A stretch of 64,000 nt of DNA, from assembly GCF_003991155.1 (NCBI RefSeq), contig NZ_CP031295.1, one strand, 5' to 3'. The stretch is from Escherichia coli (lineage in GTDB: Bacteria > Pseudomonadota > Gammaproteobacteria > Enterobacterales > Enterobacteriaceae). Below are positions 39,971 to 63,791 of this stretch, one piece after another. The notes under the pieces are model-generated. The model had not been told where the DNA came from. It saw only the letters and a program-made list of their open reading frames with translations, and did not search any database. The stretch's first letter is position 1. Each line of letters opens with the position of its first letter. A program made the position numbers and the translations under genes.

Positions 39971-40606
39971 ATGATGAAGCTGAGTATGAAATCTCTGGCA
40001 GCACTGCTGATGATGCTGAACGGGGCGGTTATGGCGTCAGAAAACGTGAACACTCCTGAAAACCGCCAGTTCCTGAAGCAGCAGGAAAATTTAAGCAGAC
40101 AACTGCGTGAAAACCTGACCATCAGCTGAAAGCCGGGCGGAGAAGCAGGTGCTGGAAACCCCTTCAGCGTTCAGATAACCATTTCTGGATGAGCTGGTTC
40201 GTAAACAGCAGGCTTCGCAGGACGGGAAACCCGGCAGGGTGCTCTGTATTTTGTGTCGTTTTCCATTCCCGAAGAGGGGCTGAAACGAATGCTGGGCGAA
40301 ACCCGGCACTACGGTATACCCGCCACACTGCGGGGCATGGTGAACAATGACCTGAAGACCACCGCTGAAGCCGTGCTGTCCCTGGTGAAAGACGGCGCGA
40401 CTGATGGTGTTCAGATCGACCCGACGCTGTTTTCACAGTACGGCATTCGCAGTGTACCGGCACTGGTGGTGTTCTGCAGTCATGGATACGACATCATCCG
40501 GGGAAACCTGCGGGTCGGCCAGGCGCTGGAGAAAGTGGCCGCCACGGGTGACTGCCGGCAGGTGGCTCATGATTTACTGGCAGGGAAAGGAGATTCCGGG
40601 AAATGA
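39971..40606 (+). pseudogene. trbC: trbC disrupted by frameshift(s): N-terminal signal-peptide part and C-terminal part in different frames
   Basis: MMKLSMKSLAALLMMLNGAVMASENVNTPENRQFLKQQENLSRQLRENLTIS stops at 40126-40128; TrbC-like continuation (SFSIPEEGLKRMLGETRH ... GDSGK) is in another frame from 40253. Confidence 0.7.
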
Positions 40607-42411: not shown

Positions 42412-42434
42412 GGTATGGGAAATAACCGGGGGAA

Positions 42435-43431: not shown

Positions 43432-43446
43432 TCGCGGATTTGATTT

Positions 43447-43815
43447 ATGAGTGAAGATTATTTGAAAATGTTTACAGGTGTTGTTCTGTTAATATTTGTC
43501 ATTATTGCCGGTTATTTCTTTTCTGAGCGTAATGACAGGAAAATGTTTCTCCTGAGCTCACTGGTTTTCCTTGTTATTAATATCGCGTGTTTATATGTGC
43601 TTACCGCCAGTCTCTGGTTTCTGTGTGGTGCAATTATGAGTCAGGGCGCAGCACTGGTTGTTTCAATAGTTGCGGCCGCATTACCGGACGTTACGAGCTT
43701 CGACAGGTTCAGAAGAATATTTATCTGTATTGTGTTGTCATCGGTATGGTCCGGAGTGATGTGGTTTTTTATAAGGGGGGCTTATGACAGGCTAAGTCAT
43801 ATAAAACGGTCATAA
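43447..43815 (+). CDS. trbA: TrbA
   Basis: 122-aa membrane protein between traF and traQ. Confidence 0.75.
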   Translation: MSEDYLKMFTGVVLLIFVIIAGYFFSERNDRKMFLLSSLVFLVINIACLYVLTASLWFLCGAIMSQGAALVVSIVAAALPDVTSFDRFRRIFICIVLSSVWSGVMWFFIRGAYDRLSHIKRS

Positions 43816-44111
43816 AAACCATACAAAATAATGAGGTTGATTACTGAAGACCATATGATAAACCATACCGCAATCCAGTGGCTTCTGAATAGCTCACAAA
43901 AATAAATATAGATAATTGAAAATAACCATAATACAACGATGCCTGCTGCGATACTTAATAAACTTATTACAAGATAGTCAGGGAAGGCATTGACCGGTAA
44001 TGAATGTGATGCTGCATATATCAGCGCAATAATTGCCGCATTTCCCGGTAACGACTCTCTTATTATGTTTCTGATTATTTCCAGTTTTTCTTTAAAAGAT
44101 CGCTTTTCCAT
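43797..44111 (-). CDS. artA: ArtA (antisense ORF within the tra operon)
   Basis: 104-aa hydrophobic ORF on the opposite strand at the F artA position. Confidence 0.65.
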   Translation of the reverse strand: MEKRSFKEKLEIIRNIIRESLPGNAAIIALIYAASHSLPVNAFPDYLVISLLSIAAGIVVLWLFSIIYIYFCELFRSHWIAVWFIIWSSVINLIILYGFYDRFI

Positions 44112-44191
44112 TTGTACCTCTGATTAATATCACACAAACGCGAATATTACAGACATGAATACTCTCATGTAAATAATAACCGGAGTTTAAC

Positions 44192-44476
44192 ATGATAAGT
44201 AAACGCAGATTCTCTTTACCCCGGCTTGATATTACGGGAATGTGGGTATTTTCCCTGGGTGTCTGGTTTCATATCGTCGCCCGTCTTGTTTACAGCAAAC
44301 CCTGGATGGCTTTTTTTCTGGCGGAGCTGATTGCGGCCATTCTCGTACTGTTCGGCGCATACCAGGTGCTGGATGCATGGATTGCCCGTGTCAGCCGGGA
44401 AGAGCGTGAGGCACTGGAAGCCAGGCAACAGGCCATGATGGAAGGGCAGCAGGAGGGCGGACATGTCTCTCACTAA
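44192..44476 (+). CDS. traQ: TraQ (pilin chaperone)
   Basis: 94 aa MISKRRFSLPRLDITGMWVFSLG...; F order. Confidence 0.9.
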   Translation: MISKRRFSLPRLDITGMWVFSLGVWFHIVARLVYSKPWMAFFLAELIAAILVLFGAYQVLDAWIARVSREEREALEARQQAMMEGQQEGGHVSH

Positions 44477-45008
44477 ATCACTGCTGTTCACCCTGTTGCT
44501 GAGCGCCGCTGCTGTGCAGGCCTCCACCCGGGATGAAATAGAGCGACTCTGGAATCCGCAGGGTATGGCTACGCAGCCTGCACAACCGGCAGCAGGCACG
44601 TCAGCCAGGACAGCAAAGCCGGCTCCCCGCTGGTTCCGCCTCAGTAATGGCAGGCAGGTTAACCTGGCCGACTGGAAGGTGGTGCTGTTTATGCAGGGGC
44701 ATTGCCCTTACTGTCACCAGTTTGACCCGGTACTGAAACAGCTGGCACAGCAGTACGGCTTTTCCGTTTTTTCCTACACCCTGGATGGTCAGGGGGATAC
44801 GGCCTTTCCTGAAGCATTACCGGTGCCACCGGAGGTGATGCAGACCTTCTTCCCGAATATCCCGGTGGCCACACCGACCACCTTCCTGGTCAACGTCAAC
44901 ACGCTTGAGGCATTACCGCTTTTACAGGGGGCAACGGATGCCGCCGGTTTTATGGCGCGGGTGGATACCGTTTTGCAGATGTACGGAGGAAAAAAAGGTG
45001 CGAAATAA
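44463..45008 (+). CDS. trbB: TrbB (thioredoxin-like)
   Basis: CPYC active site; signal peptide. Confidence 0.9.
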   Translation: MSLTKSLLFTLLLSAAAVQASTRDEIERLWNPQGMATQPAQPAAGTSARTAKPAPRWFRLSNGRQVNLADWKVVLFMQGHCPYCHQFDPVLKQLAQQYGFSVFSYTLDGQGDTAFPEALPVPPEVMQTFFPNIPVATPTTFLVNVNTLEALPLLQGATDAAGFMARVDTVLQMYGGKKGAK

Positions 45009-45279
45009 GCAGGTGGTGTTACTCATTGCCGGAATATCCGGCATCGTGACGGGAATAATCGTCAGCCTGAATATCCCCTTTATCCGTCAGGGGCTTTTTT
45101 ATCCCGCCAGCCCTGTAGAAATTGTCGTTTCGCTGAGTCTTACCTTTTCTGTTTCTGTTGTGTTTTTTGTGGGGGCAATTGTGGGATGGATTTCGGTGTC
45201 TGAAATATATTACAGCCGCATGACCGGTCTGAATGAATCATCGGAAATATCAGAGGGAACTTATAATGAGAGAAAATAA
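44998..45279 (+). CDS. trbJ: TrbJ
   Basis: GTG start; RNKQVVLLIAGISGIVTGIIVSL; F order. Confidence 0.75.
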   Translation: MRNKQVVLLIAGISGIVTGIIVSLNIPFIRQGLFYPASPVEIVVSLSLTFSVSVVFFVGAIVGWISVSEIYYSRMTGLNESSEISEGTYNERK

Positions 45280-45646
45280 AAGTAATCCTGAGCTCAAAAT
45301 CAGAAGTACAGAACGAGATTATAAATACATTTCCAGAATTACTGGCAGGTATGCTGGGTTGTCTCTGGTATTCCTGACTGCCGGAATTGTTTTATGGACA
45401 GTTATGGATATTATTTTTGATGCCTGTATTGATTCGTGGAAAGCGGACCCGGAATTAAATAATTCGAGTTATATGTGGAATATCCTGATATATGCCATTC
45501 CGTATGCGTTATATGCGCTTGCAGCCGGGTTTCTTGTTACATTTTTTTCTGTCCCCAATGTACGAATTAATATACGGAAATATCGAGATATTCCTGCTGA
45601 AATGTCGTATGCACCGGGAGAACACATTAAGGGAGGGCAAGAATGA
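45266..45646 (+). CDS. trbF: TrbF
   Basis: 126 aa; F order. Confidence 0.8.
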   Translation: MRENKSNPELKIRSTERDYKYISRITGRYAGLSLVFLTAGIVLWTVMDIIFDACIDSWKADPELNNSSYMWNILIYAIPYALYALAAGFLVTFFSVPNVRINIRKYRDIPAEMSYAPGEHIKGGQE

Positions 45647-47019
45647 TGCCACGCATTAAACCTCTTCTGGTTCTTTGTGCCGCCTTACTGACGGTGACGC
45701 CTGCAGCGTCAGCGGATGTGAACAGCGACATGAATCAGTTCTTTAATAAGCTGGGATTTGCTTCCAATACCACACAGCCGGGCGTCTGGCAGGGGCAGGC
45801 CGCCGGCTATGCTTACGGTGGCTCCCTGTATGCCCGTACTCAGGTCAAAAATGTTCAGCTAATTTCCATGACGCTGCCGGATATCAATGCTGGATGTGGC
45901 GGCATCGACGCCTATCTCGGCTCGTTCAGTTTTATTAATGGTGAGCAGTTGCAGCGTTTTGTTAAGCAGATTATGAGCAATGCTGCCGGTTACTTTTTTG
46001 ACCTTGCCCTGCAGACAACGGTGCCGGAAATAAAAACCGCAAAAGACTTCGTGCAGAAAATGGCAAGCGACATTAACAGTATGAACCTCAGTTCCTGCCA
46101 GGCTGCACAGGGGATTATCGGCGGGCTTTTCCCCCGGACGCAGGTGTCCCAGCAAAAAGTCTGTCAGGACATTGCCGGTGAGAGCAATATTTTTGCTGAC
46201 TGGGCGGCTTCCCGGCAGGGATGTACCGTTGGCGGGAAATCTGACAGTGTCAGGGATAAAGCCAGCGACAAGGATAAGGAGCGGGTGACCAAAAACATCA
46301 ACATCATGTGGAATGCGCTTTCCAAAAACAGAATGTTTGACGGCAACAAAGAGCTGAAAGAATTTGTGATGACGCTGACCGGCTCACTGGTGTTTGGTCC
46401 CAACGGCGAAATCACACCGCTGTCAGCCAGAACCACTGACCGCTCAATTATCCGGGCCATGATGGAAGGCGGCACAGCAAAAATTTATCACTGCAACGAT
46501 TCTGATAAATGCCTGAAAGTGGTGGCAGACACACCGGTGACTATCAGCCGGGATAATGCACTGAAGTCTCAGATTACTAAACTTCTGGCCAGCATTCAGA
46601 ACAAGGCGGTCAGTGACACGCCTCTGGATGACAAGGAAAAAGGCTTTATTTCCAGTACCACCATCCCCGTCTTCAAATACCTGGTTGACCCGCAGATGCT
46701 CGGAGTTTCCAACAGCATGATTTACCAGCTGACGGACTATATCGGTTACGACATCCTGCTGCAGTACATTCAGGAGCTGATACAGCAGGCCCGGGCGATG
46801 GTGGCCACGGGAAATTATGACGAAGCGGTTATCGGACATATTAACGACAACATGAATGATGCCACCCGGCAGATTGCGGCGTTTCAGTCACAGGTGCAGG
46901 TACAGCAGGATGCGCTGCTGGTTGTCGATCGTCAGATGAGCTACATGCGTCAGCAGCTTTCCGCCCGCATGCTCAGTCGTTACCAAAACAACTATCACTT
47001 CGGAGGGAGCACGCGGTGA
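45643..47019 (+). CDS. traH: TraH
   Basis: 458 aa with signal peptide; F order. Confidence 0.95.
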   Translation: MMPRIKPLLVLCAALLTVTPAASADVNSDMNQFFNKLGFASNTTQPGVWQGQAAGYAYGGSLYARTQVKNVQLISMTLPDINAGCGGIDAYLGSFSFINGEQLQRFVKQIMSNAAGYFFDLALQTTVPEIKTAKDFVQKMASDINSMNLSSCQAAQGIIGGLFPRTQVSQQKVCQDIAGESNIFADWAASRQGCTVGGKSDSVRDKASDKDKERVTKNINIMWNALSKNRMFDGNKELKEFVMTLTGSLVFGPNGEITPLSARTTDRSIIRAMMEGGTAKIYHCNDSDKCLKVVADTPVTISRDNALKSQITKLLASIQNKAVSDTPLDDKEKGFISSTTIPVFKYLVDPQMLGVSNSMIYQLTDYIGYDILLQYIQELIQQARAMVATGNYDEAVIGHINDNMNDATRQIAAFQSQVQVQQDALLVVDRQMSYMRQQLSARMLSRYQNNYHFGGSTR

Positions 47020-49838
47020 ATGAAGTTTATGTGATTGCCGGTGGTGAGTGGTTGCGGAATAACCTGAACGCCATTGCCGCCTTTATGGGAACCAGGACGT
47101 GGGATTCCATTGAAAAAATTGCGCTCACATTGTCTGTTCTCGCGGTGGCCGTAATGTGGGTACAGCGGCACAACGTGATGGATTTGCTGGGCTGGGTGGC
47201 CGTATTTGTGCTTATCAGCCTGCTGGTTAATGTCCGCACATCGGTGCAGATTATTGATAACAGTGACCTGGTCAAAGTTCACCGGGTGGATAATGTGCCG
47301 GTCGGACTGGCGATGCCACTTTCACTGACGACCCGTATCGGGCATGCAATGGTGGCCAGTTACGAGATGATCTTCACGCAACCGGACAGTGTCACCTACA
47401 GCAAAACGGGGATGCTGTTTGGCGCAGAACTGGTATCAAAAAGCACCGACTTTTTGTCCCGCAATCCGGAAATCGCCAATCTTTTCCAGGATTATGTGCA
47501 GAACTGTGTTATGGGGGATATTTACCTGAACCACAAATACACGCTGGAGGAGCTGATGGCCTCCGCTGATCCCTACACGCTGATTTTTTCCCGCCCCAGC
47601 CCGCTGCGGGGCGTTTATGACAGCAATAATAATTTCGTAACCTGTAAGGACGCGTCGGTTTCGCTGAAAGACAAGCTGAATCTGGACACACAGAGTGGCG
47701 GAAAAACCTGGCATTATTATGCCCAGCAGCTATTTGGTGGACGCCCTGATCCTAACCTGCTGTTCAGTACGCTGATTGGCGACAGTTACAGTTACTTCTA
47801 TGGCTCAAGTAAATCAGCCAGCCAGATCATCCGCCAGAATGTCACCATCAATGCGCTGAAGGAGGGGATCACCAGTTATGCCGCACGTAATGGTGATTCG
47901 GCCAGCCTGGTGAATCTGGCCACCACGTCATCGATGGAGAAACAACGTCTGGCACATGTCTCCATCGGTCATGTGGCGATGCGGACACTGCCCATGACGC
48001 AGACCATCCTGACGGGGATCGCCATCGGTATTTTCCCGCTCCTGGTACTGGCGGCTGTATTCAACAAACTGACGCTGTCTGTCCTGAAAGGTTATGTGTT
48101 TGCCCTGATGTGGCTGCAGTCATGGCCACTCTTGTACGCCATTCTGAACAGTGCCATGACATTTTATGCGAAACAGAATGGTGCGCCGGTGGTGCTCTCT
48201 GAAATTTCACAGATACAACTGAAATACTCCGATCTGGCTTCCACTGCCGGGTATCTTTCCATGATGATCCCGCCATTATCCTGGATGATGGTCAGGGGGC
48301 TTGGGGCCGGATTTTCCAGTGTGTACAGCCATTTCGCTTCCTCTGCTATCAGCCCGACTGCCAGTGCGGCAGGTAGTGTGGTTGACGGTAATTACTCCTA
48401 CGGCAACATGCAGACGGAAAACGTGAACGGCTTCAGCTGGAGCACCAACAGCACCACGTCGTTTGGTCAGATGATGTACCAGACCGGCAGTGGCGCAACC
48501 GCCACACAGACCCGTGACGGTAATATGGTGATGGATGCAAGCGGAGCGATGTCCCGTTTACCGGTCGGTATCAATGCAACGCGTCAGATTGCAGTGGCAC
48601 AACAGGAAATGGCCCGGGAGGCGTCGAACAGAGCAGAAAGTGCCCTGCATGGTTTCAGCAGCAGTATTGCCAGTGCCTGGAACACGCTCAGTCAGTTTGG
48701 TTCTAACCGGGGGAGCAGTGACTCTGTCACCAGTGGTGCTGACAGTACGATGAGTGCACAGGACTCCATGATGGCCAGCCGTATGCGCAGTGCAGTGGAA
48801 AGCTATGCGAAGGCGCATAATATCAGTAATGAGCAGGCGACTCAGGAACTGGCATCCAGAAGTACGAGAGCTTCTGCCGGGATGTATGGAGATGCTCATG
48901 CTGAATGGGGGGTTAAACCTAAAATTCTTGGTGTTGGTGGAGGATTAGGCGTTAGAGGTGGTGGTCGGGCTGGCATTGACTGGAGTGATGATGATGCGCA
49001 TCAGGCCAGCAGTGGTTCACGGGCCAGCTATGATGCTCGTCATGATATTGACGCTAAAGCCAGTAAGGACTTTAAAGAGGCCAGCGATTACTTTACCAGT
49101 CGCAAAGTCAGTGAATCCGGCAGCCATACTGACAATAATGCTGATTCCCGGGTGGATCAACTGTCTGCAGCCCTGAATTCAGCGAAACAGAGTTACGACC
49201 AGTACACGACGAATATGACCCGCAGCCATGAATATGCTGAAATGGCATCCCGTACTGAAAGCATGAGTGGGCAGATGAGCGAAGATTTGTCGCAACAGTT
49301 TGCACAGTATGTGATGAAACACGCACCGCAGGATGCCGAAGCTATTCTGACAAATACCAGTTCGCCGGAGATTGCAGAACGCCGTCGGGCAATGGCCTGG
49401 TCTTTTGTGCAGGAACAGATACAGCCTGGTGTTGATAATGCCTGGCGGGAATCCCGTGGCGATATTGGTAAAGGAATGGAGAGCGTACCTTCGGGTGGAG
49501 GCAGTCAGGATATTATTGCTGACCATCAGGGACATCAGGCCATTATTGAGCAAAGAACGCAGGACAGTAATATCCGTAATGATGTAAAACATCAGGTTGA
49601 TAATATGGTCACAGAATATAAAGGGAATATAGGTGATACTCAGAACAGCATACGTGGCGAGGAAAATATTGTAAGAGGACAGTATTCTGAACTGCAGAAT
49701 CACCATAAAACAGAGGCATTATCTCAGAATAATAAATATAATGAAGAAAAGTCGGCTCAGGAAAGAATGCCCGGGGCTGACAGTCCACAGGAACTGATGA
49801 AAAGGGCAAAGGAGTATCAGGATAAGTATAAGCAATAA
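47016..49838 (+). CDS. traG: TraG (mating-pair stabilisation / entry exclusion partner)
   Basis: 940 aa; F order. Confidence 0.95.
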   Translation: MNEVYVIAGGEWLRNNLNAIAAFMGTRTWDSIEKIALTLSVLAVAVMWVQRHNVMDLLGWVAVFVLISLLVNVRTSVQIIDNSDLVKVHRVDNVPVGLAMPLSLTTRIGHAMVASYEMIFTQPDSVTYSKTGMLFGAELVSKSTDFLSRNPEIANLFQDYVQNCVMGDIYLNHKYTLEELMASADPYTLIFSRPSPLRGVYDSNNNFVTCKDASVSLKDKLNLDTQSGGKTWHYYAQQLFGGRPDPNLLFSTLIGDSYSYFYGSSKSASQIIRQNVTINALKEGITSYAARNGDSASLVNLATTSSMEKQRLAHVSIGHVAMRTLPMTQTILTGIAIGIFPLLVLAAVFNKLTLSVLKGYVFALMWLQSWPLLYAILNSAMTFYAKQNGAPVVLSEISQIQLKYSDLASTAGYLSMMIPPLSWMMVRGLGAGFSSVYSHFASSAISPTASAAGSVVDGNYSYGNMQTENVNGFSWSTNSTTSFGQMMYQTGSGATATQTRDGNMVMDASGAMSRLPVGINATRQIAVAQQEMAREASNRAESALHGFSSSIASAWNTLSQFGSNRGSSDSVTSGADSTMSAQDSMMASRMRSAVESYAKAHNISNEQATQELASRSTRASAGMYGDAHAEWGVKPKILGVGGGLGVRGGGRAGIDWSDDDAHQASSGSRASYDARHDIDAKASKDFKEASDYFTSRKVSESGSHTDNNADSRVDQLSAALNSAKQSYDQYTTNMTRSHEYAEMASRTESMSGQMSEDLSQQFAQYVMKHAPQDAEAILTNTSSPEIAERRRAMAWSFVQEQIQPGVDNAWRESRGDIGKGMESVPSGGGSQDIIADHQGHQAIIEQRTQDSNIRNDVKHQVDNMVTEYKGNIGDTQNSIRGEENIVRGQYSELQNHHKTEALSQNNKYNEEKSAQERMPGADSPQELMKRAKEYQDKYKQ

Positions 49839-49853
49839 TACTGTGTTTGGGAG

Positions 49854-50351
49854 ATGATAATGAGATGTTTAGCCCATATTGCTCTGGTAACAGTGATACA
49901 GTTTATCGCCTGTTATCTGGCTGATTGGGGGAATGCCGAAACAGTTTTTATGCTGTTCTTCATAGTGCTATGGCAGGGACTGTTTATCTGGTTGTTCTCT
50001 CAAATACGAAAAAAACGGGATGTGTCGGATGAGTTTAAGTTTAGTAAAGGCGTTTGGTATATAACGATGCCAGTATCTTCCTTACTCTCTCCGTTATTAA
50101 GCCTGATGGTTTTTATCATTGGTACACTATACGAATTAAGGCAAGTTAGTGGTTGCATAAGCATAAAAAAATGGGGGCAAAATCAACTCAAAGACCAATA
50201 TGATGGGAGTGAAAAGTTAGACTTCGGGGGCATTGAACAGACCCCAACGATCTACTATAACCCTTCAACCGGATATCCTATGCATGGAGGCTTTGATTCA
50301 GCGGGAAATACTTTTGGGACTCGTTGGCAGGACTATTATGACAGGCAATAA
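49854..50351 (+). CDS. traS: TraS (entry exclusion, inner membrane)
   Basis: Hydrophobic 165-aa protein between traG and traT; called by position. Confidence 0.7.
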
Positions 50352-50382
50352 GAAAACTGTAGTTTGTAAAAAAGGTAATTTG

Positions 50383-51114
50383 ATGAAAACAAAAAAATTG
50401 ATGATGGTTACACTGGTCAGTTCCACTCTGGCCCTTTCAGGGTGTGGTGCGATGAGCACAGCAATCAAGAAGCGTAACCTTGAGGTGAAGACTCAGATGA
50501 GTGAGACCATCTGGCTTGAACCCGCCAGCGAACGCACGGTATTTCTGCAGATCAAAAACACGTCTGATAAAGACATGAGTGGGCTGCAGGGCAAAATTGC
50601 TGATGCTGTGAAAGCAAAAGGGTATCAGGTGGTGACTTCTCCGGATAAAGCCTACTACTGGATTCAGGCGAATGTGCTGAAGGCCGATAAGATGGATCTG
50701 CGGGAGTCTCAGGGATGGCTGAACCGTGGTTATGAAGGCGCAGCAGTTGGTGCAGCGTTAGGTGCCGGTATCACCGGATATAATTCCAATTCTGCCGGTG
50801 CCACACTCGGTGTGGGCCTTGCTGCCGGTCTGGTGGGTATGGCTGCAGATGCGATGGTGGAAGATGTGAACTATACCATGATCACGGATGTGCAGATTGC
50901 AGAGCGTACTAAGGCAACGGTGACAACGGATAATGTTGCCGCCCTGCGTCAGGGCACATCAGGTGCGAAAATTCAGACCAGTACTGAAACAGGTAACCAG
51001 CATAAATACCAGACCCGTGTGGTCTCAAATGCGAACAAGGTTAACCTGAAATTTGAAGAGGCGAAGCCTGTTCTCGAAGACCAGCTGGCCAAATCAATCG
51101 CAAATATTCTCTGA
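50383..51114 (+). CDS. traT: TraT surface exclusion lipoprotein
   Basis: Lipobox LALSGCGA; matches F TraT. Confidence 0.95.
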
Positions 51115-51123
51115 TTATCTTCC

Positions 51124-51220
51124 GGAGGCTGGTCTGACCGGCCTCCTGACTGACGCCTCGCTTTGCTCGTTGTCCAACCCCGGGGAGAAATAAAATAAAT
51201 TTTATTTCTCCCCGGCGTTT
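51124..51220 (+). terminator. tandem hairpins after traT
   Basis: GGAGGCTGGTCTGACCGGCCTCC, then CCCCGGGGAGAAATAAAAT...ATTTTATTTCTCCCCGG. Confidence 0.7.
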
Positions 51221-51366
51221 CCGAAATAAATATGAAAACACTGAGCGGTTGTGCAAATTCTTTGTGCGACCGTGAAGTGTTGCCGGCGAAGCCGGAATTT
51301 AACGGTTATTAATCTTTTCATCATTAATAATCAGTCCGACTGACTTTCTTTCTTCAGAATATCATC

Positions 51367-53507
51367 ATGAGTTTTAACGCAAAGGATATGACCCAGGGCG
51401 GTCAGATTGCGTCCATGCGTATCCGCATGTTCAGTCAGATCGCCAATATCATACTTTACTGCCTGTTTATTTTTTTCTGGATCCTAGTTGGTCTGGTTTT
51501 ATGGGTAAAAATAAGCTGGCAGACGTTTGTGAATGGCTGCATTTACTGGTGGTGCACCACGCTGGAAGGCATGCGGGATTTAATCAGGTCCCAGCCGGTC
51601 TATGAGATCCAGTATTACGGCAAAACCTTCCGGATGAACGCGGCTCAGGTACTGCATGATAAATATATGATCTGGTGCGGAGAGCAGCTATGGTCCGCAT
51701 TCGTTCTGGCCACAGTTGTGGCACTGGTTATTGCCTGATTACCTTCTTTGTTGTCTCACGGATTCTGGGGCGTCAGGGTAAACAACAGAGCGAAAATGAA
51801 GTCACAGGTGGTCGTCAGCTGACAGACAATCCGAAAGACGTTGCCCGGATGCTGAAAAAGACGGCAAGGACTCCGATATACGGATTGGCGACCTGCCGAT
51901 TATCCGGGATTCCGAAATCAGAACTTCTGTCTGCACGGCACGGTCGGGGCCGGTAAGTCGGAAGTTATCCGTCGTCTGGCCAACTACGCCCGTCAGCGTG
52001 GAGATATGGTGGTGATTTATGACCGTTCAGGGAATTTGTTAAAAGTTACTATGATCCCTCCATCGATAAAATCCTGAATCCGCTGGATGCCCGCTGTGCC
52101 GCACGGGATTTGTGGAAGAGTGCCTGACACAGCCAGATTTTGATAATACCGCAAATACTCTGATCCCGATGGGGACAAAAGAGGACCCGTTCTGGCAGGG
52201 TTCAGGACGTACCATTTTTGCGGAAGCGGCATACCTGATGCGTAATGACCCCAACCGCAGCTACAGCAAACTGGTGGACACACTGCTTTCCATCAAAATT
52301 GAAAAGCTGCGTACCTTCCTGCGTAATTCACCGGCGGCCAACCTGGTGGAAGAGAAAATCGAGAAAACGGCCATATCCATCCGTGCTGTGCTGACCAACT
52401 ACGTGAAAGCCATCCGTTACCTGCAGGGGATTGAGCATAACGGTGAGTCTTTACCATCCGTGACTGGATGCGTGGTGTCCGGAAGATCAGAAAAACGGCT
52501 GGCTGTTTATCTCGTCGAATGCCGACACCCATGCCTCCCTGAAGCCGGTGATCTCCATGTGGCTGTCCATTGCCATTCGTGGTCTGCTGGCAATGGGAGA
52601 AAACCGTAACCGTCGTGTGTGGTTTTCTGTGATGAGCTACCCACGTTACACAAACTGCCGGACTGGTGGAGATCCTGCCGGAAGCCCGTAAGTTCGGTGG
52701 CTGTTATGTGTTTGGTATCCAGTCTATGCCCAGCTGGAAGATATCTACGGTGAAAGCGGCTGCCACGCTGTTTGACGTCATGAACACCCGTGCCTTTTTC
52801 GTTCTCCCAGCCATAAGATTGCAGAGTTCGCTGCCGGTGAGATTGGTGAGAAAGAGCACCTGAAAGCCAGCGAGCAGTATTCCTACGGTGCTGATCCGGT
52901 ACGTGACGGGGTATCGACCGGTAAGGATATGGAGCGTCAGACGCTGGTCAGTTATTCCGACATTCAGTCTCTGCCGGATCTGACCTGTTATGTCACCCTG
53001 CCCGGACCGTATCCGGCAGTAAAACTCTCCCTGAAATATCAGACACGACCGAAGGTCGCTCCGGAGTTTATTCCGCGTGACATCAACCCGGAAATGGAGA
53101 ACCGTCTGAGTGCCGTACTTGCCGCAAGGGAAGCAGAAGGTCGTCAGATGGCCAGCCTCTTCGAACCGGATGTCCCGGAGGTTGTTTCCGGAGAAGACGT
53201 GACTCAGGCTGAACAGCCGCAACAGCCGGTGTCTCCTGCCATCAACGATAAGAAGTCAGATGCAGGTGTGAATGTTCCGGCAGGGGGGATCGAGCAGGAG
53301 CTGAAAATGAAACCGGAAGAAGAGATGGAACAGCAACTGCCACCCGGGATCAGTGAATCCGGTGAAGTGGTGGATATGGCCGTTTATGAGGCATGGCAAC
53401 GGGAGCAGAATCCGGATATCCAGCAGAAGATGCAGCGTCGTGAAGAGGTGAACATCAATGTGCACCGGGAGCGCGGGGAGGATGTTGAGCCGGGAGATGA
53501 TTTCTGA
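51367..53507 (+). pseudogene. traD: traD (coupling protein) fragmented into at least five reading-frame segments
   Basis: TraD-like peptide runs in ORFs 51367-51738, 51675-51956, 52112-52609, 52666-52863 and 52929-53507, each in a different frame; Walker [12 protein letters not shown] is in yet another frame near 51935. Confidence 0.8.
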
Positions 53508-53515
53508 TGAACAGG

Positions 53516-53914
53516 TCAGCTCCAGTCTTCAATTCTCAGACCGTCCACACGTTCAAATTCCCGGGTGTTATTAGTCACAATAATCAGTCCCCGACTGCGG
53601 GCATGACCTGCGATCATTTGATCAAATGGCCCGACAGGGCGTCCCTGACGGGCAAGTTCTGCTCTTATCTGGCCGCTGTGTGTGGCTGCGGCAGCGTCGT
53701 AATCCAGAACATCAATGCGGGAAACAAATCCCTCGATCACAGCGAGATTACGTTCAGGCATCTGGCTTTTTTCTGCACCATATATCAGCTCCATCAGGGT
53801 GACCGAACTGATACACATTCTCCCCTGGTTCAGGTTAAAACGCTCCCTGACGCTGGCGGGTTTGTTCTTTATCGTGAAAATGCAGATGTTGGTATCGAGC
53901 ATAAACTTCAGCAT
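53516..53914 (-). CDS. vapC: VapC PIN-domain toxin
   Basis: MLKFMLDTNICIF PIN N-terminus; 132 aa. Confidence 0.85.
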   Translation of the reverse strand: MLKFMLDTNICIFTIKNKPASVRERFNLNQGRMCISSVTLMELIYGAEKSQMPERNLAVIEGFVSRIDVLDYDAAAATHSGQIRAELARQGRPVGPFDQMIAGHARSRGLIIVTNNTREFERVDGLRIEDWS

Positions 53915-54141
53915 CAGAATGACTCCCTTTCCTGCATGCCGGGCTGTTCCCTGTTATCCATAAAATCGGCGCTGACGTTGTGTCCGTCGAACCATTCGTC
54001 CCATGTCTCTCCGGCTGGCGTAATGATTCTGGTTCGTCCGACAGCAATCACTTCAACGCGTTTTACGTTTTCCGGCAATGCAACCGCTTTTGGCAGTCTG
54101 ACCGCCTGGCTGCGGTTGCTGAAAAATACGGTGGTTTCCAT
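53914..54141 (-). CDS. vapB: VapB antitoxin
   Basis: 75-aa ORF immediately upstream of, and coupled to, vapC. Confidence 0.8.
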   Translation of the reverse strand: METTVFFSNRSQAVRLPKAVALPENVKRVEVIAVGRTRIITPAGETWDEWFDGHNVSADFMDNREQPGMQERESF

Positions 54142-54222
54142 TATTTGCCTCCTTATGTGGATATGTCTTGTGTATATCCATTGTGGGATTGATACCGGGA
54201 TATGTCAAAGGGATATACGTTT

Positions 54223-57200
54223 ATGATGAGTATCGCGCAGGTCAGATCGGCCGGAAGTGCCGGTAACTATTATACCGACAAGGATAATTACTATGTGCTG
54301 GGCAGCATGGGAGAACGCTGGGCCGGCAGGGGGGCTGAACAGCTGGGGCTGCAGGGCAGCGTCGATAAGGATGTTTTTACCCGTCTTCTGGAGGGGAAGC
54401 TGCCGGACGGAGCGGATTTAAGCCGCATGCAGGATGGCAGTAATAAGCATCGTCCCGGCTACGACCTGACCTTCTCCGCCCCCAAAAGTGTCTCCGTGAT
54501 GGCCATGTTAGGCGGTGATAAACGTCTTATTGATGCACATAACCAGGCCGTGGATTTTGCTGTCCGTCAGGTGGAGGCGCTGGCTTCCACACGGGTTATG
54601 ACGGACGGACAGTCAGAAACGGTGCTGACCGGTAATCTGGTGATGGCACTGTTTAACCACGACACCAGTCGCGATCAGGAACCACAGTTACACACACATG
54701 CGGTAGTGGCCAATGTCACGCAGCATAACGGCGAGTGGAAGACATTGAGCAGTGACAAAGTGGGGAAAACGGGGTTCATTGAGAATGTGTACGCTAATCA
54801 GATTGCCTTCGGCAGGCTCTACCGGGAAAAACTGAAAGAGCAGGTTGAGGCGCTAGGCTATGAAACGGAAGTGGTTGGTAAGCACGGTATGTGGGAGATG
54901 CCGGGCGTACCGGTGGAGGCCTTCTCCGGACGCTCACAGGCTATCCGGGAGGCCGTCGGGGAAGACGCCTCGCTGAAATCCCGGGATGTGGCGGCACTGG
55001 ATACGCGAAAATCCAAACAGCACGTCGATCCTGAAGTCAGAATGGCTGAATGGATGCAGACGCTGAAGGAAACCGGGTTCGACATCCGGGCGTATCGTGA
55101 CGCGGCGGACCAACGGGCGGAGACCCGCACGCAGACGCCCGGACCCGCTTCACAGGACGGGCCGGATGTGCAGCAGGCGGTGACACAGGCCATTGCCGGA
55201 TTAAGTGAACGCAAAGTGCAGTTTACGTACACGGACGTGCTGGCCAGAACGGTCGGCATACTGCCGCCGGAAAATGGTGTGATTGAACGGGCACGCGCCG
55301 GTATCGATGAGGCCATCAGCCGTGAGCAGCTTATCCCCCTCGATCGTGAGAAGGGGCTGTTCACGTCCGGGATTCATGTGCTCGATGAGCTGTCAGTCCG
55401 GGCACTCAGTCGTGACATCATGAAACAGAACCGGGTGACCGTACATCCGGAGAAAAGTGTCCCCCGGACGGCCGGTTACAGCGATGCGGTCAGTGTTCTG
55501 GCACAGGATCGCCCGTCGCTGGCTATTGTGTCCGGGCAGGGCGGTGCAGCCGGGCAGCGTGAGCGGGTGGCGGAGCTGGTCATGATGGCCCGGGAGCAGG
55601 GGCGGGAGGTGCAGATTATCGCCGCTGACCGTCGCTCGCAGATGAACCTGAAGCAGGATGAACGGCTGTCCGGTGAGCTGATAACCGGACGTCGTCAGCT
55701 GCAGGAGGGCATGGCCTTCACGCCGGGCAATACTGTTATCGTTGACCAGGGCGAAAAACTCTCCCTGAAAGAGACGTTAACCCTGCTGGACGGTGCCGCA
55801 CGTCATAACGTACAGGTCCTGATAACCGACAGCGGGCAGCGAACCGGTACAGGCAGTGCACTGATGGCCATGAAAGATGCCGGGGTGAACACATATCGCT
55901 GGCAGGGGGGAGAACAGCGGCCGGCCACCATCATCAGTGAACCGGACCGTAATGTCCGCTATGCCCGGCTGGCAGGAGATTTTGCTGCCAGCGTGAAAGC
56001 CGGAGAAGAGAGCGTGGCACAGGTCAGCGGGGTACGGGAACAGGCCATACTGACACAGGCCATTCGCAGTGAGCTGAAAACACAGGGCGTGCTCGGACGC
56101 CCGGAGGTAACCATGACCGCCCTGTCGCCGGTCTGGCTGGACAGCCGGAGCCGTTATCTGCGGGATATGTACCGTCCGGGGATGGTGATGGAGCAGTGGA
56201 ACCCGGAGACACGCAGTCATGACCGCTATGTTATCGACCGGGTGACGGCGCAGAGTAACAGCCTGACCCTGCGGGATGCGCAGGATGAAACGCAGGTGGT
56301 GCGTATTTCCTCCCTGGACAGCAGCTGGTCGCTGTTCCGGCCGGAAAAAATGCCGGTGGCAGACGGCGAGCGACTGAGGGTGACAGGGAAAATTCCCGGA
56401 CTCCGCGTCTCCGGCGGTGACCGCCTGCAGGTGGCATCCGTCAGTGAAGATGCGATGACGGTTGTTGTGCCGGGGCGGGCTGAACCGGCCTCCCTGCCTG
56501 TGAGCGATTCACCATTCATGGCACTGAAGCTGGAGAACGGCTGGGTGGAAACGCCCGGGCATTCCGTCAGCGACAGTGCGAAGGTTTTTGCCTCCGTCAC
56601 ACAGATGGCAATGGACAACGCCACCCTGAACGGTCTGGCCCGCAGCGGTCGTGATGTCCGGCTGTATTCCTCACTGGATGAAACCCGTACTGCGGAAAAA
56701 CTTGCCCGCCATCCCTCCTTTACGGTGGTTTCTGAGCAGATAAAGGCGCGTGCCGGTGAGACATTGCTGGAAACCGCTATCAGTCTGCAGAAAACCGGGC
56801 TTCACACGCCGGCACAGCAGGCTATTCATCTGGCGCTTCCTGTGGTGGAAAGTAAAAACCTGGCCTTCAGCATGGTGGACCTGCTGACAGAGGCGAAGTC
56901 GTTTGCTGCAGAAGGAACCAGTTTTACTGAACTGGGAGGGGAAATCAATGCGCAGATAAAACGCGGTGATTTACTGTATGTGGATGTGGCAAAAGGCTAT
57001 GGCACAGGCCTGCTGGTTTCCCGTGCGTCGTATGAGGCAGAAAAGAGCATTCTTCGCCATATTCTCGAAGGTAAGGAGGCGGTCACGCCACTGATGGAGA
57101 GAGTACCTGGCGAACTCATGGAGAAACTGACATCAGGACAGCGTGCCGCTACCCGCATGATACTGGAAACGTCCGACCGTTTCACGGTGGTGCAGGGCTA

Positions 57201-59493
57201 TGCCGGTGTGGGTAAGACCACACAGTTCCGGGCGGTGATGTCAGCCGTGAACATGCTGCCGGAGAGTGAACGTCCCCGTGTCGTGGGGCTGGGGCCCACG
57301 CACCGTGCGGTCGGTGAGATGCGCAGCGCCGGCGTGGATGCACAGACGCTGGCGTCCTTTCTGCATGACACGCAGCTGCTGCAGCGCAGCGGAGAAACGC
57401 CGAATTTCAGCAACACGCTGTTCCTGCTCGATGAGAGCTCTATGGTGGGCAATACCGACATGGCACGGGCATACGCCCTGATTGCGGCCGGTGGCGGTCG
57501 TGCCGTGGCCAGTGGTGACACGGACCAGTTGCAGGCCATCGCGCCCGGTCAGCCTTTCCGTCTCCAGCAGACGCGCAGTGCTGCCGATGTGGTCATCATG
57601 AAGGAGATTGTGCGTCAGACGCCGGAACTGCGGGAGGCGGTATACAGCCTGATTAACCGGGATGTGGAAAGGGCACTGTCCGGGCTTGAGAGTGTGAAAC
57701 CGTCTCAGGTTCCCCGTCAGGAGGGCGCATGGGCACCGGAGCACTCCGTGACGGAGTTCAGTCACAGCCAGGAAGCGAAACTGGCAGAAGCGCAGCAGAA
57801 GGCGATGCTGAAAGGCGAGGCTTTCCCGGATATCCCCATGACACTGTATGAAGCCATTGTCCGCGACTATACCGGCAGGACACCGGAAGCACGGGAGCAG
57901 ACGCTGATTGTCACACACCTGAATGAGGACCGGCGCGTACTGAACAGCATGATTCATGATGCACGGGAAAAGGCCGGTGAGCTGGGCAAAGAGCAGGTCA
58001 TGGTGCCTGTCCTGAACACAGCGAATATACGTGACGGAGAACTGCGTCGTCTCTCCACCTGGGAGAATAACCCGGATGCCCTTGCCCTGGTGGATAGTGT
58101 GTATCACCGGATTGCCGGTATCAGCAAGGATGACGGGCTGATAACCCTGGAGGATGCGGAAGGTAACACGCGGCTGATTTCGCCCCGGGAGGCGGTGGCT
58201 GAAGGCGTCACACTGTACACCCCGGACACCATCCGGGTGGGAACCGGTGACCGGATGCGCTTCACGAAGAGTGACCGGGAGCGAGGTTATGTGGCCAACA
58301 GCGTCTGGACGGTGACAGCGGTTTCCGGTGACAGTGTCACGCTGTCGGACGGACAGCAGATCCGGGTGATTCGCCCAGGTCAGGAGCGGGCAGAGCAACA
58401 TATTGACCTGGCTTATGCCATCACCGCCCACGGTGCGCAGGGGGCAAGTGAAACCTTTGCCATCGCGCTTGAAGGCACGGAAGGTAACCGGAAACTGATG
58501 GCCGGCTTTGAGTCAGCCTACGTGGCCCTGTCGCGTATGAAGCAGCATGTGCAGGTGTACACCGATAACCGTCAGGGCTGGACGGATGCCATCAACAATG
58601 CCGTACAGAAAGGAACTGCCCACGATGTGCTAGAGCCGAAATCGGACCGGGAGGTCATGAATGCAGAGCGGCTGTTCAGTACGGCGCGGGAGCTGCGGGA
58701 CGTGGTGGCCGGCCGTGCCGTTCTCCGTCAGGCAGGGCTGGCCGGGGGAGACAGTCCTGCACGGTTTATTGCACCCGGGCGCAAATATCCGCAGCCGTAT
58801 GTGGCACTGCCGGCTTTTGACCGTAACGGCAAGTCAGCTGGTATCTGGCTGAACCCGCTGACCACGGATGACGGAAACGGGCTGCGGGGCTTCAGTGGTG
58901 AAGGCCGGGTGAAAGGCAGCGGGGATGCGCAGTTCGTGGCCCTGCAGGGCAGCCGTAACGGAGAGAGCCTGCTGGCTGATAATATGCAGGATGGTGTCCG
59001 GATTGCCCGTGATAATCCTGACAGCGGTGTGGTGGTAAGAATCGCCGGTGAAGGTCGTCCGTGGAATCCCAGAACCATCACCGGTGGTCGCGTGTGGGGG
59101 GATATCCCGGACAACAGCGTTCAGCCGGGAGCCGGAAATGGCGAACCGGTCACGGCAGAGGTACTGGCACAGCGGCAGGCTGAAGAGGCCATCCGCCGTG
59201 AAACGGAACGCCGTGCGGATGAAATTGTCCGTAAAATGGCAGAGAACAAACCTGACCTGCCGGACGGCAAAACAGAGCAGGCTGTCAGGGATATTGCCGG
59301 GCTGGAGCGTGACCGGTCTGCCATATCTGAACGGGAAGCCGCGCTGCCGGAGAGTGTACTGCGTGAACCACAACGGGTGCGGGAAGCGGTCCGGGAGGTT
59401 GCCCGGGAAAATCTGCTGCAGGAGCGACTGCAGCAGATGGAGCGGGATATGGTTCGTGACCTGCAGAAAGAGAAAACCCTGGGCGGAGACTGA
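54223..59493 (+). CDS. traI: TraI relaxase-helicase
   Basis: MMSIAQVRSAGSAGNYYTDKDNYYVLGSMGERWAG relaxase N-terminus; helicase Walker A GYAGVGKTT; about 1756 aa. Confidence 0.95.
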   Translation: MMSIAQVRSAGSAGNYYTDKDNYYVLGSMGERWAGRGAEQLGLQGSVDKDVFTRLLEGKLPDGADLSRMQDGSNKHRPGYDLTFSAPKSVSVMAMLGGDKRLIDAHNQAVDFAVRQVEALASTRVMTDGQSETVLTGNLVMALFNHDTSRDQEPQLHTHAVVANVTQHNGEWKTLSSDKVGKTGFIENVYANQIAFGRLYREKLKEQVEALGYETEVVGKHGMWEMPGVPVEAFSGRSQAIREAVGEDASLKSRDVAALDTRKSKQHVDPEVRMAEWMQTLKETGFDIRAYRDAADQRAETRTQTPGPASQDGPDVQQAVTQAIAGLSERKVQFTYTDVLARTVGILPPENGVIERARAGIDEAISREQLIPLDREKGLFTSGIHVLDELSVRALSRDIMKQNRVTVHPEKSVPRTAGYSDAVSVLAQDRPSLAIVSGQGGAAGQRERVAELVMMAREQGREVQIIAADRRSQMNLKQDERLSGELITGRRQLQEGMAFTPGNTVIVDQGEKLSLKETLTLLDGAARHNVQVLITDSGQRTGTGSALMAMKDAGVNTYRWQGGEQRPATIISEPDRNVRYARLAGDFAASVKAGEESVAQVSGVREQAILTQAIRSELKTQGVLGRPEVTMTALSPVWLDSRSRYLRDMYRPGMVMEQWNPETRSHDRYVIDRVTAQSNSLTLRDAQDETQVVRISSLDSSWSLFRPEKMPVADGERLRVTGKIPGLRVSGGDRLQVASVSEDAMTVVVPGRAEPASLPVSDSPFMALKLENGWVETPGHSVSDSAKVFASVTQMAMDNATLNGLARSGRDVRLYSSLDETRTAEKLARHPSFTVVSEQIKARAGETLLETAISLQKTGLHTPAQQAIHLALPVVESKNLAFSMVDLLTEAKSFAAEGTSFTELGGEINAQIKRGDLLYVDVAKGYGTGLLVSRASYEAEKSILRHILEGKEAVTPLMERVPGELMEKLTSGQRAATRMILETSDRFTVVQGYAGVGKTTQFRAVMSAVNMLPESERPRVVGLGPTHRAVGEMRSAGVDAQTLASFLHDTQLLQRSGETPNFSNTLFLLDESSMVGNTDMARAYALIAAGGGRAVASGDTDQLQAIAPGQPFRLQQTRSAADVVIMKEIVRQTPELREAVYSLINRDVERALSGLESVKPSQVPRQEGAWAPEHSVTEFSHSQEAKLAEAQQKAMLKGEAFPDIPMTLYEAIVRDYTGRTPEAREQTLIVTHLNEDRRVLNSMIHDAREKAGELGKEQVMVPVLNTANIRDGELRRLSTWENNPDALALVDSVYHRIAGISKDDGLITLEDAEGNTRLISPREAVAEGVTLYTPDTIRVGTGDRMRFTKSDRERGYVANSVWTVTAVSGDSVTLSDGQQIRVIRPGQERAEQHIDLAYAITAHGAQGASETFAIALEGTEGNRKLMAGFESAYVALSRMKQHVQVYTDNRQGWTDAINNAVQKGTAHDVLEPKSDREVMNAERLFSTARELRDVVAGRAVLRQAGLAGGDSPARFIAPGRKYPQPYVALPAFDRNGKSAGIWLNPLTTDDGNGLRGFSGEGRVKGSGDAQFVALQGSRNGESLLADNMQDGVRIARDNPDSGVVVRIAGEGRPWNPRTITGGRVWGDIPDNSVQPGAGNGEPVTAEVLAQRQAEEAIRRETERRADEIVRKMAENKPDLPDGKTEQAVRDIAGLERDRSAISEREAALPESVLREPQRVREAVREVARENLLQERLQQMERDMVRDLQKEKTLGGD

Positions 59494-59512
59494 CACAGGA
59501 AGATAAACGCTG

Positions 59513-60259
59513 ATGACAACGGATAACACGAACACAACACGTAATGATTCACTGGCTGCCCGGACCGATACCTGGTTGCAGTCGTTGCTGGTCTGGTCAC
59601 CCGGACAGCGGGATATCATCAAAACGGTGGCACTGGTGCTGATGGTTCTGGACCATGCAAACCGCATTCTGCATCTGGACCAGTCGTGGATGTTTCTGGT
59701 CGGGCGTGGGGCCTTTCCGCTGTTTGCCCTGGTGTGGGGGCTGAATCTGTCCCGTCATACGCATATCCGGCAGGAGGCCATTAACCGGCTGTGGGGATGG
59801 GCGGTGATTGCCCAGTTCGCATATTATCTGGCCGGCTTTCCTTGGTATGAGGGGAATATCCTGTTTGCCTTTGCAGTTGCGGCACAGGTGCTGACATGGT
59901 GTGAAACGCGCACCTGGTGGCGTTCCGCAGAGACCATGTTGCTTCTGGCAATGTGGTTGCCTTTCTCCGGCACCAGTTACGGCATTGCCGGGCTGCTGAT
60001 GCTGGCAGTCAGCCACAGGCTGTACCGGGCGGAAGACAGAATGGAACGTCTGGCGCTGGTCGCCTGCCTGCTGGCTGTTATTCCGGCGCTTAACCTTGCC
60101 ACCAGTGATGCAGCGGCGGTGGCCGGCCTTGTGATGACGGTGCTGACTGTTGGTCTGGTGTCCTGTACAGGGAAATCACTACCCCGTTTCTGGTACGGGG
60201 ATTTTTTCCCGACGTTCTATGCCTGTCATCTTACTGTGCTGGGCGTTCTGGCTGTGTGA
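59513..60259 (+). CDS. traX: TraX (pilin acetylase)
   Basis: 248-aa polytopic membrane protein after traI. Confidence 0.9.
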   Translation: MTTDNTNTTRNDSLAARTDTWLQSLLVWSPGQRDIIKTVALVLMVLDHANRILHLDQSWMFLVGRGAFPLFALVWGLNLSRHTHIRQEAINRLWGWAVIAQFAYYLAGFPWYEGNILFAFAVAAQVLTWCETRTWWRSAETMLLLAMWLPFSGTSYGIAGLLMLAVSHRLYRAEDRMERLALVACLLAVIPALNLATSDAAAVAGLVMTVLTVGLVSCTGKSLPRFWYGDFFPTFYACHLTVLGVLAV

Positions 60260-60317
60260 CTGGTATGATGCTGGCGCTGATTCTGCTTATTAATAAACAA
60301 CATAACACAGGATATTT

Positions 60318-61178
60318 ATGAAAATTACGGATCACAAACTCCCTGAAGGTATTGCCCTGACATTTCGTGTCCCGGAAGGAAATATAAAACATCCTTTGAT
60401 TCTCTTATGCCATGGATTTTGCGGTATCCGGAATGTTCTGCTGCCTTCCTTTGCGAATGCGTTTACAGAAGCCGGGTTTGCAACGATTACTTTTGATTAT
60501 CGTGGATTCGGTGAGAGTGAAGGGGAACGAGGTCGTCTGGTTCCGGCAATGCAGACCGAAGATATTATTTCAGTTATCAATTGGGCAGAAAAGCAGGTAT
60601 GTATTGATAATCAGCGTATAGGATTATGGGGAACATCGCTGGGTGGGTGTCATGTATTCAATGCAGCTGCGCAGGATAAAAGAGTGAAAAGTATTGTCAG
60701 CCAGCTGGCTTTTGCTGACGGTGAGGTTCTGGTTACCGGAGAAATGAATGAACTGGAGAAAGCTTCTTTTCTGTCCACGCTGAATAAAATGGCAGAAAAG
60801 AAGAAAAATACCGGGAAAGAGATGTTTGTGGGGGTTACCCGGGTACTGAGTGATAATGAATCAAAGGTATTCTTCGAGAAGGTAAAAGGTCAGTATCCTG
60901 AAATGGATATAAAAATACCTTTCCTTACGGTTATGGAGACGTTGCAATATAAACCGGCAGAGAGCGCAGCCAAAGTACAGTGCCCAGTTTTGGTTGTTAT
61001 TGCCGGCCAGGATAGTGTTAATCCACCAGAACAGGGAAGAGCCTTATATGATGCTGTTGCTTCTGGTACTAAGGAATTATACGAGGAAGCTGACGCATGC
61101 CATTATGATATTTATAAAGGCGCGTTTTTTGAACGTGTGGCGGCAGTACAGACGCAATGGTTTAAAAAACATCTTTAA
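60318..61178 (+). CDS. alpha/beta-fold hydrolase
   Basis: GxSxG nucleophile elbow (LWGTSLGGC) and HGFCG oxyanion-hole-like motif; 286 aa. Confidence 0.7.
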   Translation: MKITDHKLPEGIALTFRVPEGNIKHPLILLCHGFCGIRNVLLPSFANAFTEAGFATITFDYRGFGESEGERGRLVPAMQTEDIISVINWAEKQVCIDNQRIGLWGTSLGGCHVFNAAAQDKRVKSIVSQLAFADGEVLVTGEMNELEKASFLSTLNKMAEKKKNTGKEMFVGVTRVLSDNESKVFFEKVKGQYPEMDIKIPFLTVMETLQYKPAESAAKVQCPVLVVIAGQDSVNPPEQGRALYDAVASGTKELYEEADACHYDIYKGAFFERVAAVQTQWFKKHL

Positions 61179-61280
61179 TTGTCGGTATTAATATGTCAGA
61201 GGTCGTTGAGGTCAGCTTAATATCATAGTGAGTAGTTTCAACGACCTGGAGGACATATTTTCACAAAGGTCAGGGCAATC

Positions 61281-61841
61281 ATGACAGAGCAGAAACGACC
61301 GGTACTGACACTGAAACGGAAAACGGAAGGGGAAACACCGACCCGGAGCCGGAAAACCATCATCAATGTCACCACGCCACCAAAATGGAAGGTGAAAAAG
61401 CAGAAACTGGCGGAGAAGGCTGCCCGGGAAGCAGAGCTGGCGGCGAAGAAAGCACAGGCCAGACAGGCGCTGTCCATTTATCTGACGCTGCCCTCGCTGG
61501 ATGAGGCGGTGAACACTCTGAAACCTTGGTGGCCGGGATTGTTTGACGGTAACACGCCCCGGCTTCTGGCCTGCGGTATCCGGGACGTGTTACTGGAAGA
61601 CGTGGCGCAGCGGAATATCCCGCTCTCGCATAAAAAACTGCGCCGGGCGCTGAAGGCCATCACCCGTTCAGAAAGCTATCTGTGTGCCATGAAAGCCGGT
61701 GCCTGCCGGTATGACACGGAAGGGTATGTGACGGAGCATATTTCTCAGGAGGAGGAAGCGTATGCGGCAGGGCGTTTGGAGAAAATTCGCCGCCAGAACC
61801 GGACAAAGGCAGAACTTCAGGCCGTGCTTGATGGGAAATAA
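61281..61841 (+). CDS. finO: FinO fertility inhibition protein (intact)
   Basis: 186 aa, Lys-rich N-terminus; matches FinO as recalled. Confidence 0.9.
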
Positions 61842-61846
61842 AAAAA

Positions 61847-61875
61847 GCCTCCCCGGAAACCGGGGAGGCTGAAAC
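61847..61875 (+). terminator. rho-independent terminator after finO
   Basis: AGCCTCCCCGGAAACCGGGGAGGCT hairpin. Confidence 0.7.
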
Positions 61876-61976
61876 AATAAGGCTTAAAAGGAAATAACTT
61901 CCGTACCCGAAAGGAAGCCAGTCCACTGAATTATTTACCACAATAATACTGACGACTAAAAGGGAGGAGCAGAAAA

Positions 61977-62189
61977 ATGAATGGATTCAGAAACAGTTCA
62001 CGGAACGGTCAGGTCTGGCGTTACCAGCGTGCCGGCGGGCGGGCCGTTATTCTGGAGGTCAGTGGACGCTGGATGGAAGCGGCAGAAGCATGGCGACGGG
62101 CTGCCTGCATAGCTCCCCGGACAGACTGGCAACAGTTTGCCCGGAAAAGGGCTGAACACTGCCACCGGCGCTGCCGGGGAAGGGTGTAA
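61977..62189 (+). CDS. small basic hypothetical protein (70 aa)
   Basis: ORF with AGGGAGG RBS; Arg/Trp-rich; uncertain. Confidence 0.35.
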   Translation: MNGFRNSSRNGQVWRYQRAGGRAVILEVSGRWMEAAEAWRRAACIAPRTDWQQFARKRAEHCHRRCRGRV

Positions 62190-63790: not shown

Positions 63791-63791
63791 T

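Follow-up and report, generated by a model that had tools for sequence, protein, structure and literature searches.

Frameshifts in the traD gene of an F-like plasmid sequence from Escherichia coli: probable nanopore errors in three unpolished islands

In nanopore consensus sequences of Enterobacteriaceae, the majority of errors fall at Dcm motifs and, after these, in the length of homopolymers (Wick et al. 2019, PMC6591954). For E. coli in particular, nanopore-specific false variants at CC(A/T)GG made up 93.1% and 97.7% of the total in two cases, and they were mainly A→G and T→C changes at the central base of the motif (Greig et al. 2019, PMC6703438).

We compare with this pattern the gene traD in a window of 64,000 nucleotides of E. 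coli DNA (the whole stretch analysed, from contig NZ_CP031295.1, to which all positions refer). Its comparison alleles are the intact traD genes of NZ_CP157091, NZ_CP042247 and NZ_CP024827 (plasmid pCREC-544_1). The lesions lie in dense clusters, termed islands and read here as probable errors, of which two (E2 and E3) fall in traD:

51367..53507, plus strand: traD, F-type type IV coupling protein gene, broken as given according to both the list of open reading frames and the alignment to intact alleles
51731..52117, plus strand: putative error island E2, with five one-base deletions and two apparent Dcm-site miscalls CCTGG→CACGG
E2 deletions, one base each: 51730/1; 51854 (A6→A5); 51918 (CC→C); 52028/9 (G run shortened); 52117 (GG→G)
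E2 Dcm-site changes: 51757-61 and 52102-06 (dinucleotides 51758-9 and 52103-4), which would give W132R and W248R
52135..52375, plus strand: clean traD segment between E2 and E3, with 11 informative sites of pCREC-544_1 type and 0 lesions
52447..52799, plus strand: putative error island E3, with seven deletion events
E3 deletions: 52447-9, 52480, 52622, 52662 (in CCTGG), 52723, 52751 (two bases, GAGA→GA), 52799

In keeping with an F-like tra operon, the gene lies between traT (50383-51111) and traI (54223-59493), and more than 4,000 plasmid records, in which traD is annotated as intact, match the stretch at 95-98% identity. As given here, each of the three frames of 51367-53507 contains 15-33 stops, and the list of open reading frames holds only pieces of the gene: an N-terminal one of 123 codons, several short ones and a C-terminal one of 192 codons (52929-53507). 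A preliminary description of the window, made from the sequence alone, had reported both this fragmentation and the intact final 192 codons, and the list of open reading frames bears it out. Each of the five frame junctions that it named corresponds to a real one-base deletion relative to the intact alleles, although its count fell short: base-by-base alignment gives 12 deletion events, amounting to 13 bases and all within 51730-52799, with no insertions, so that seven more events, those in 52447-52799, join the five. Its reading of the lesions as losses from homopolymers does not hold for all of them: the deletion at 52662 lies in a Dcm site (depending on the allele assumed), and it had not taken in the two further Dcm sites that read CACGG. 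At the C-terminus of TraD, a Gln/Pro-rich repeat (around 53211; CAGCCGCAA units) differs in copy number among plasmids, that of pBCE049-1 being 72 bases longer than the window's – an ordinary length polymorphism.

Beneath the lesions lies what looks like an ordinary gene. Restoring the 13 bases yields an open reading frame of 717 amino acids, free of internal stops and as long as TraD of pCREC-544_1. The two proteins have six amino-acid differences, of which two are the W→R changes at the CACGG Dcm sites and are probably miscalls too. The repaired protein passes as an F-type TraD over its full length, scoring 1628.6 bits against NF010254 (cutoff 1221) and 826.3 bits against TIGR02759 (cutoff 521), and it carries the Walker A motif GTVGAGKS and the Walker B motif CDELPTL; the fragments as given score 265, 250 and 340 bits, each on a separate slice of the profile. 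Among the substituted bases that separate repaired traD from the pCREC-544_1 allele, 32 are synonymous and eight non-synonymous. Judged from the aligned bases, the pattern is that of a functional allele overlaid with errors, not of a gene that has drifted through 12 frameshifts.

Damage of the same kind is found in a second gene of the operon, and the genes that follow traD are undisturbed:

39974..40606, plus strand: trbC, with about 40 codons scrambled and three in-frame stops on translation
40109..40229, plus strand: putative error island E1, in trbC, with five deletion events (six bases)
E1 deletions: 40109 (A5→A4); 40134 (CCTGG→CC-GG); 40158 (C6→C4); 40184 (CCTGG→-CTGG); 40229 (C4→C3)
53516..54141, minus strand: vapC/vapB toxin-antitoxin pair between traD and traI, intact, 100% identical to that of pCREC-544_1 and outside the damage
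54223..59493, plus strand: traI, relaxase/helicase, intact, its protein 100% identical to TraI of pCREC-544_1

The net loss of six bases in trbC lets the frame recover downstream, and the gene matches its reference over the full length at 79% identity (tblastn). When the proteins of the two closest plasmids were mapped onto the window by tblastn, 63 of 66 were intact, most at 100% identity; besides traD and trbC the only exception is trbA, whose last four codons are altered by an additional G at 43775 (G6 as compared with G5 in pCREC-544_1). The G6 form is also present in CP057486.1 and CP057492.1 and may have arisen naturally or may be a length error that recurs. The tra operon therefore cannot be called otherwise complete, as the preliminary description had it, given the deletions and stops in trbC and the changed end of trbA; its statement that traC, traN, traG and traI are intact is correct, and the same is true of traH. 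As traI is intact and its product identical to the reference, the downstream flank can be taken as free of errors. The vapBC insertion between traD and traI is present in pCREC-544_1 and pBCE049-1 and absent from pUTME-14-1, and an open reading frame of 239 codons that overlaps it on the plus strand (53507-54226) is probably spurious.

By its similarity to sequenced plasmids, the window joins two F-like types already known into a mosaic: positions 1-34033 match LHM10-1 (NZ_CP037904) at 99.2% (99.9% over the first 14 kb), and 22867-64000 match pCREC-544_1 at 99.5%. The LHM10-1-like part includes an intact umuD/Y-family polymerase (umuC-like) pair (8729-10434, minus strand) with a dinI-like gene, 100% identical to LHM10-1. 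Around traD, the segments 40484-51680 and 52842-64000 (22.4 kb together) show two differences from pCREC-544_1, or 0.09 per kb, both in the former and none in the latter. Within the pCREC-type tra region lie four patches of LHM10-1 type (39009-39632, 40109-40483, 51681-52117 and 52448-52841), and all the deletions of traD and trbC sit in LHM10-1-type segments. The informative sites of traD accordingly alternate – pCREC type up to 51642, LHM10-1 type from 51681 to 52117, pCREC type from 52135 to 52375, LHM10-1 type from 52448 to 52841 and pCREC type again from 52937 – and each island in the gene is bounded by pCREC-544_1-type sites, E2 at 51642 and 52135, E3 at 52375 and 52937.

Several simple accounts of where the islands lie were considered and rejected. 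Errors do not accompany every LHM10-1-type segment, since that at 39009-39632 is free of indels, as is the divergent stretch of traC at 37000-38000, with its 48 substitutions. Nor are the islands the most divergent segments, in which polishing reads might have failed to map, E3 having about 2.3% informative sites and the clean segment that separates E2 from E3 4.6%. In size they would fit fixed polishing windows of 500 bases, yet the distance from the start of E2 to that of E3, at 696-804 bases, is no multiple of 500, so that the two share no grid. Finally, the window is not error-laden as a whole: beyond the 63 intact proteins, its left half holds only ordinary allelic variation, in which repeat-unit indels and G-run lengths agree with one or other of the references. 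Length variants in the leading region at 19528, 20023 and 25968 – a CTGCTA repeat that differs by 36 bases, an indel of 9 bases and a run of 6 G where relatives have 8 or 10 – lack the signature of the islands and look natural.

The lesions themselves are of a distinctive kind. Over the 41 kb alignable to pCREC-544_1 there are 19 indel events, of which 17 are deletions of one or two bases, all inside the three islands; their clustering within 1.6 kb of that alignment, of which the preliminary description had singled out the part in traD as unusual, has a probability of about 1e-24 under uniformity. The islands, about 120-390 bp long between their outermost lesions, carry some 22 events per kb, affecting 1-4% of bases. 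All 17 small indels in E1, E2 and E3 are deletions (binomial P = 1.5e-5), with 19 bases lost, and the chance of loss rises with the length of the run: 6 of 135 runs of two bases are shortened (4%), 2 of 34 runs of three (6%), 4 of 10 runs of four (40%) and 4 of 6 runs of five or more (67%), whereas in the local flanks none of 550 runs is. This deletion bias and dependence on run length are what a nanopore consensus artefact requires. Against a panel of six alleles, what is private to the window in traD amounts to its 13 lost bases and its altered Dcm sites, and no private substitution lies outside Dcm sites in the traD and trbC islands. The marks of a pseudogene hit many times over – private substitutions, mixed indels, larger events – are not seen, there being no insertion and no event of more than two bases, and the damaged regions contain no IS elements, large deletions or insertions.

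The second signature concerns the Dcm sites. All five CCWGG sites inside the islands are corrupted, as against none of the 55 elsewhere in 39003-64000 (Fisher P = 1.8e-7), their forms being CC-GG, -CTGG, CACGG, CACGG and -CTGG; the deletion at 52662 counts as a Dcm site only if the LHM10-1-type allele is the underlying sequence, and with this allele-dependent site discounted 4 of 5 are corrupted (P = 1e-5). Errors concentrated at CCWGG motifs are, again, what a nanopore consensus artefact demands. C→T is the change expected from deamination of 5-methylcytosine. Natural mutagenesis of Dcm sites, whether by such deamination or by very-short-patch repair, was therefore rejected: C→T is not among the changes, and three of the sites have lost a base instead.

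An unrelated record serves as a positive control. Over 35.7 kb, CP042630.1 (pNCYU-25-82-3) differs from LHM10-1 by 36 substitutions, every one of them within Dcm motifs (1.3% of bases), and 11 of its 24 small indels lie at Dcm motifs. Between 100000 and 138251 the genes traA, traK, traB, traC, traW, traU, traF, traG and most of traI have no protein in its gene table, and the record appears, from these features of its sequence, to carry uncorrected nanopore errors. At the site corresponding to position 51757 of the window it shows the identical change, CCTGG→CACGG, and at the second site CCTGG→CCCGG. To find one and the same miscall at this site in two unrelated sequences is a sign that the reading process errs systematically.

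The lesions are, moreover, unique to the window. By megablast, the traD deletions were common to none of the 4,244 plasmid records and none of the 3,264 E. coli records that contain the segment, the best matches all spanning 1164 bases rather than the window's 1151, and exact-product look-up found no record of the truncated N-terminal traD product. An exact DNA pattern built around two of the window's deletions, in which allelic sites were masked, had no match in genome and metagenome collections; the control pattern, with the two bases restored, was present in at least 120 contigs from metagenomes. Of the full-length traD copies in metagenomes, all 106 are free of every deletion and open the same 12 gaps against the window; CCTGG is retained at the first Dcm site in 116 of 116 copies from metagenomes, and the TGG codon at the second in 107 of 107. 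The sharing of lesions among related plasmids that would be expected of an inherited pseudogene is thus absent.

Taken together – deletion-only, run-length-dependent and Dcm-targeted lesions, no private substitutions, near-identical flanks, and lesions shared with no relative – these observations favour an artefact, and the frameshifts are very probably errors of nanopore base-calling or consensus, confined to three unpolished islands in an otherwise short-read-accurate assembly. Both the platform and the reason why polishing skipped the islands are what we infer from the pattern. On this explanation, native DNA would have been read through a pore that under-called homopolymers and miscalled Dcm-methylated CCWGG in the three islands; these miscalls would have removed 19 bases in 17 events and broken traD and trbC on paper only, the underlying gene being an ordinary intact F-type traD allele. 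Short reads may have been unplaceable in the islands, for example if drawn to a co-resident F-like plasmid with the same LHM10-1-type segments; the coincidence of the islands with such segments suggests that the short reads may have been placed elsewhere. Alternatively, a local gap in short-read coverage may have been filled from long reads.

Some points weigh against a nanopore origin. The error density in the islands exceeds that of the usual deep nanopore consensus, so that the islands would have to rest on very shallow coverage or on reads that are close to raw. The cause of the overlap between the three islands and LHM10-1-type segments in a pCREC-544_1-type background is uncertain. Plasmids with truly inactivated tra genes, furthermore, exist.

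An artefact of another sequencing method is improbable, though it fares better than the biological explanations. Homopolymer under-calling by 454 or Ion Torrent chemistry, poor Sanger reads from gap closure, or a consensus that fuses two co-resident traD alleles into a chimera could also leave deletion-only lesions dependent on homopolymer length, and the islands are sized like Sanger reads or gap fills and match the switches of allele type, as the consensus of a mixed template might. Corruption of five Dcm sites out of five, however, is specific to native methylated DNA read through a pore, whereas flow-based and Sanger methods read unmethylated copies, and the same site-specific miscalls recur in CP042630.1.

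Real decay is less probable still. It would have traD (and trbC) inactivated once, further frameshifts then accumulating under relaxed selection in a plasmid that is truly non-transmissible; the frames are indeed broken in the sequence as given, and decayed tra regions are found in nature. Yet neutral decay at any uniform rate could not have put 12 independent indels into 1.07 kb while adding no private substitutions except at Dcm sites and leaving 22 kb of flanks with only two differences. Insertions, large deletions and IS elements are lacking, the ratio of synonymous to non-synonymous changes is that of a selected allele, and neither the clean 241-bp segment between the islands nor the intact last 192 codons would be expected in a dead gene, quite apart from the failure of any relative to carry any of the same lesions.

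On F' episomes, short runs are known to suffer −1 deletions through the action of Pol IV. The least probable explanation of all is nevertheless real local hypermutation, in which gene-conversion tracts from a co-resident LHM10-1-type plasmid, made by error-prone synthesis, would have brought showers of −1 frameshifts and Dcm-site lesions and inactivated traD and trbC in one step: the three islands, as LHM10-1-type segments within pCREC-544_1-type sequence, do resemble conversion tracts, the −1 deletions do fall in short runs and the window does encode a UmuDC-like Y-family polymerase (8729-10434), but the error rate needed (1-4% per base) exceeds by orders of magnitude that of any known polymerase, translesion synthesis gives no reason for CCTGG→CACGG changes aimed at Dcm sites, the unrelated, nanopore-type record CP042630.1 has the miscall of position 51757 too, which points to the instrument, and other LHM10-1-type segments are clean.

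The preliminary description had left the choice between biology and a localised artefact open, and the lesion spectrum, the Dcm sites, the flanks and the uniqueness of the lesions now speak for the artefact and against relaxed selection or hypermutation. Its further suggestion that the plasmid cannot transfer itself is left unsupported as a consequence. Were the frameshifts real, they would mean that a widespread F plasmid type, associated with resistance and virulence, had been locked in its host, and would suggest an unusual local mutational process. As features of the plasmid, though, they are almost certainly not real, and the damage to traD most likely says nothing about the plasmid's ability to transfer. 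A non-conjugative label, or the annotation of traD and trbC as pseudogenes, would accordingly be wrong, and predictions of gene content or mobility drawn from the same assembly should be screened for similar unpolished islands. A simple test that needs no reads is available: to tally the Dcm sites, to see whether indels run in one direction, and to count the substitutions that are private with respect to close relatives.

Among described phenomena, the islands share with residual Oxford Nanopore consensus errors in Enterobacteriaceae (PMC6591954, PMC6703438) the corruption of CCWGG, including the central T→C change, as well as the length-dependent shortening of homopolymers, the excess of deletions over insertions and the spurious frameshifted genes that result, a signature that CP042630.1 bears in the same tra genes. 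They differ in distribution: such errors are elsewhere spread out, whereas here they form three dense islands and the rest of the 64-kb window is error-free. In this respect the islands are closer to the errors left by short-read polishing where reads cannot be placed (as in the Polypolish paper, PMC8812927), which likewise appear as islands of long-read error in short-read-accurate sequence; unlike that case, no repeat is visible within the window, and a second copy would have to lie elsewhere in the genome, for example on a co-resident F-like plasmid. With the decayed tra regions of non-conjugative F-like plasmids the window has in common the broken frames of traD and trbC, but IS insertions, large deletions, insertions and substitutions alongside the lesions are all missing, the genes next to the damage match functional homologues at 100% identity, and no relative has the same lesions. 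The closest gene, finally, is TraD of the F plasmid (NF010254/TIGR02759), which the repaired gene resembles in its full length, its Walker motifs and its place between traT and traI, and from which the gene as given departs in being split into many short frames.
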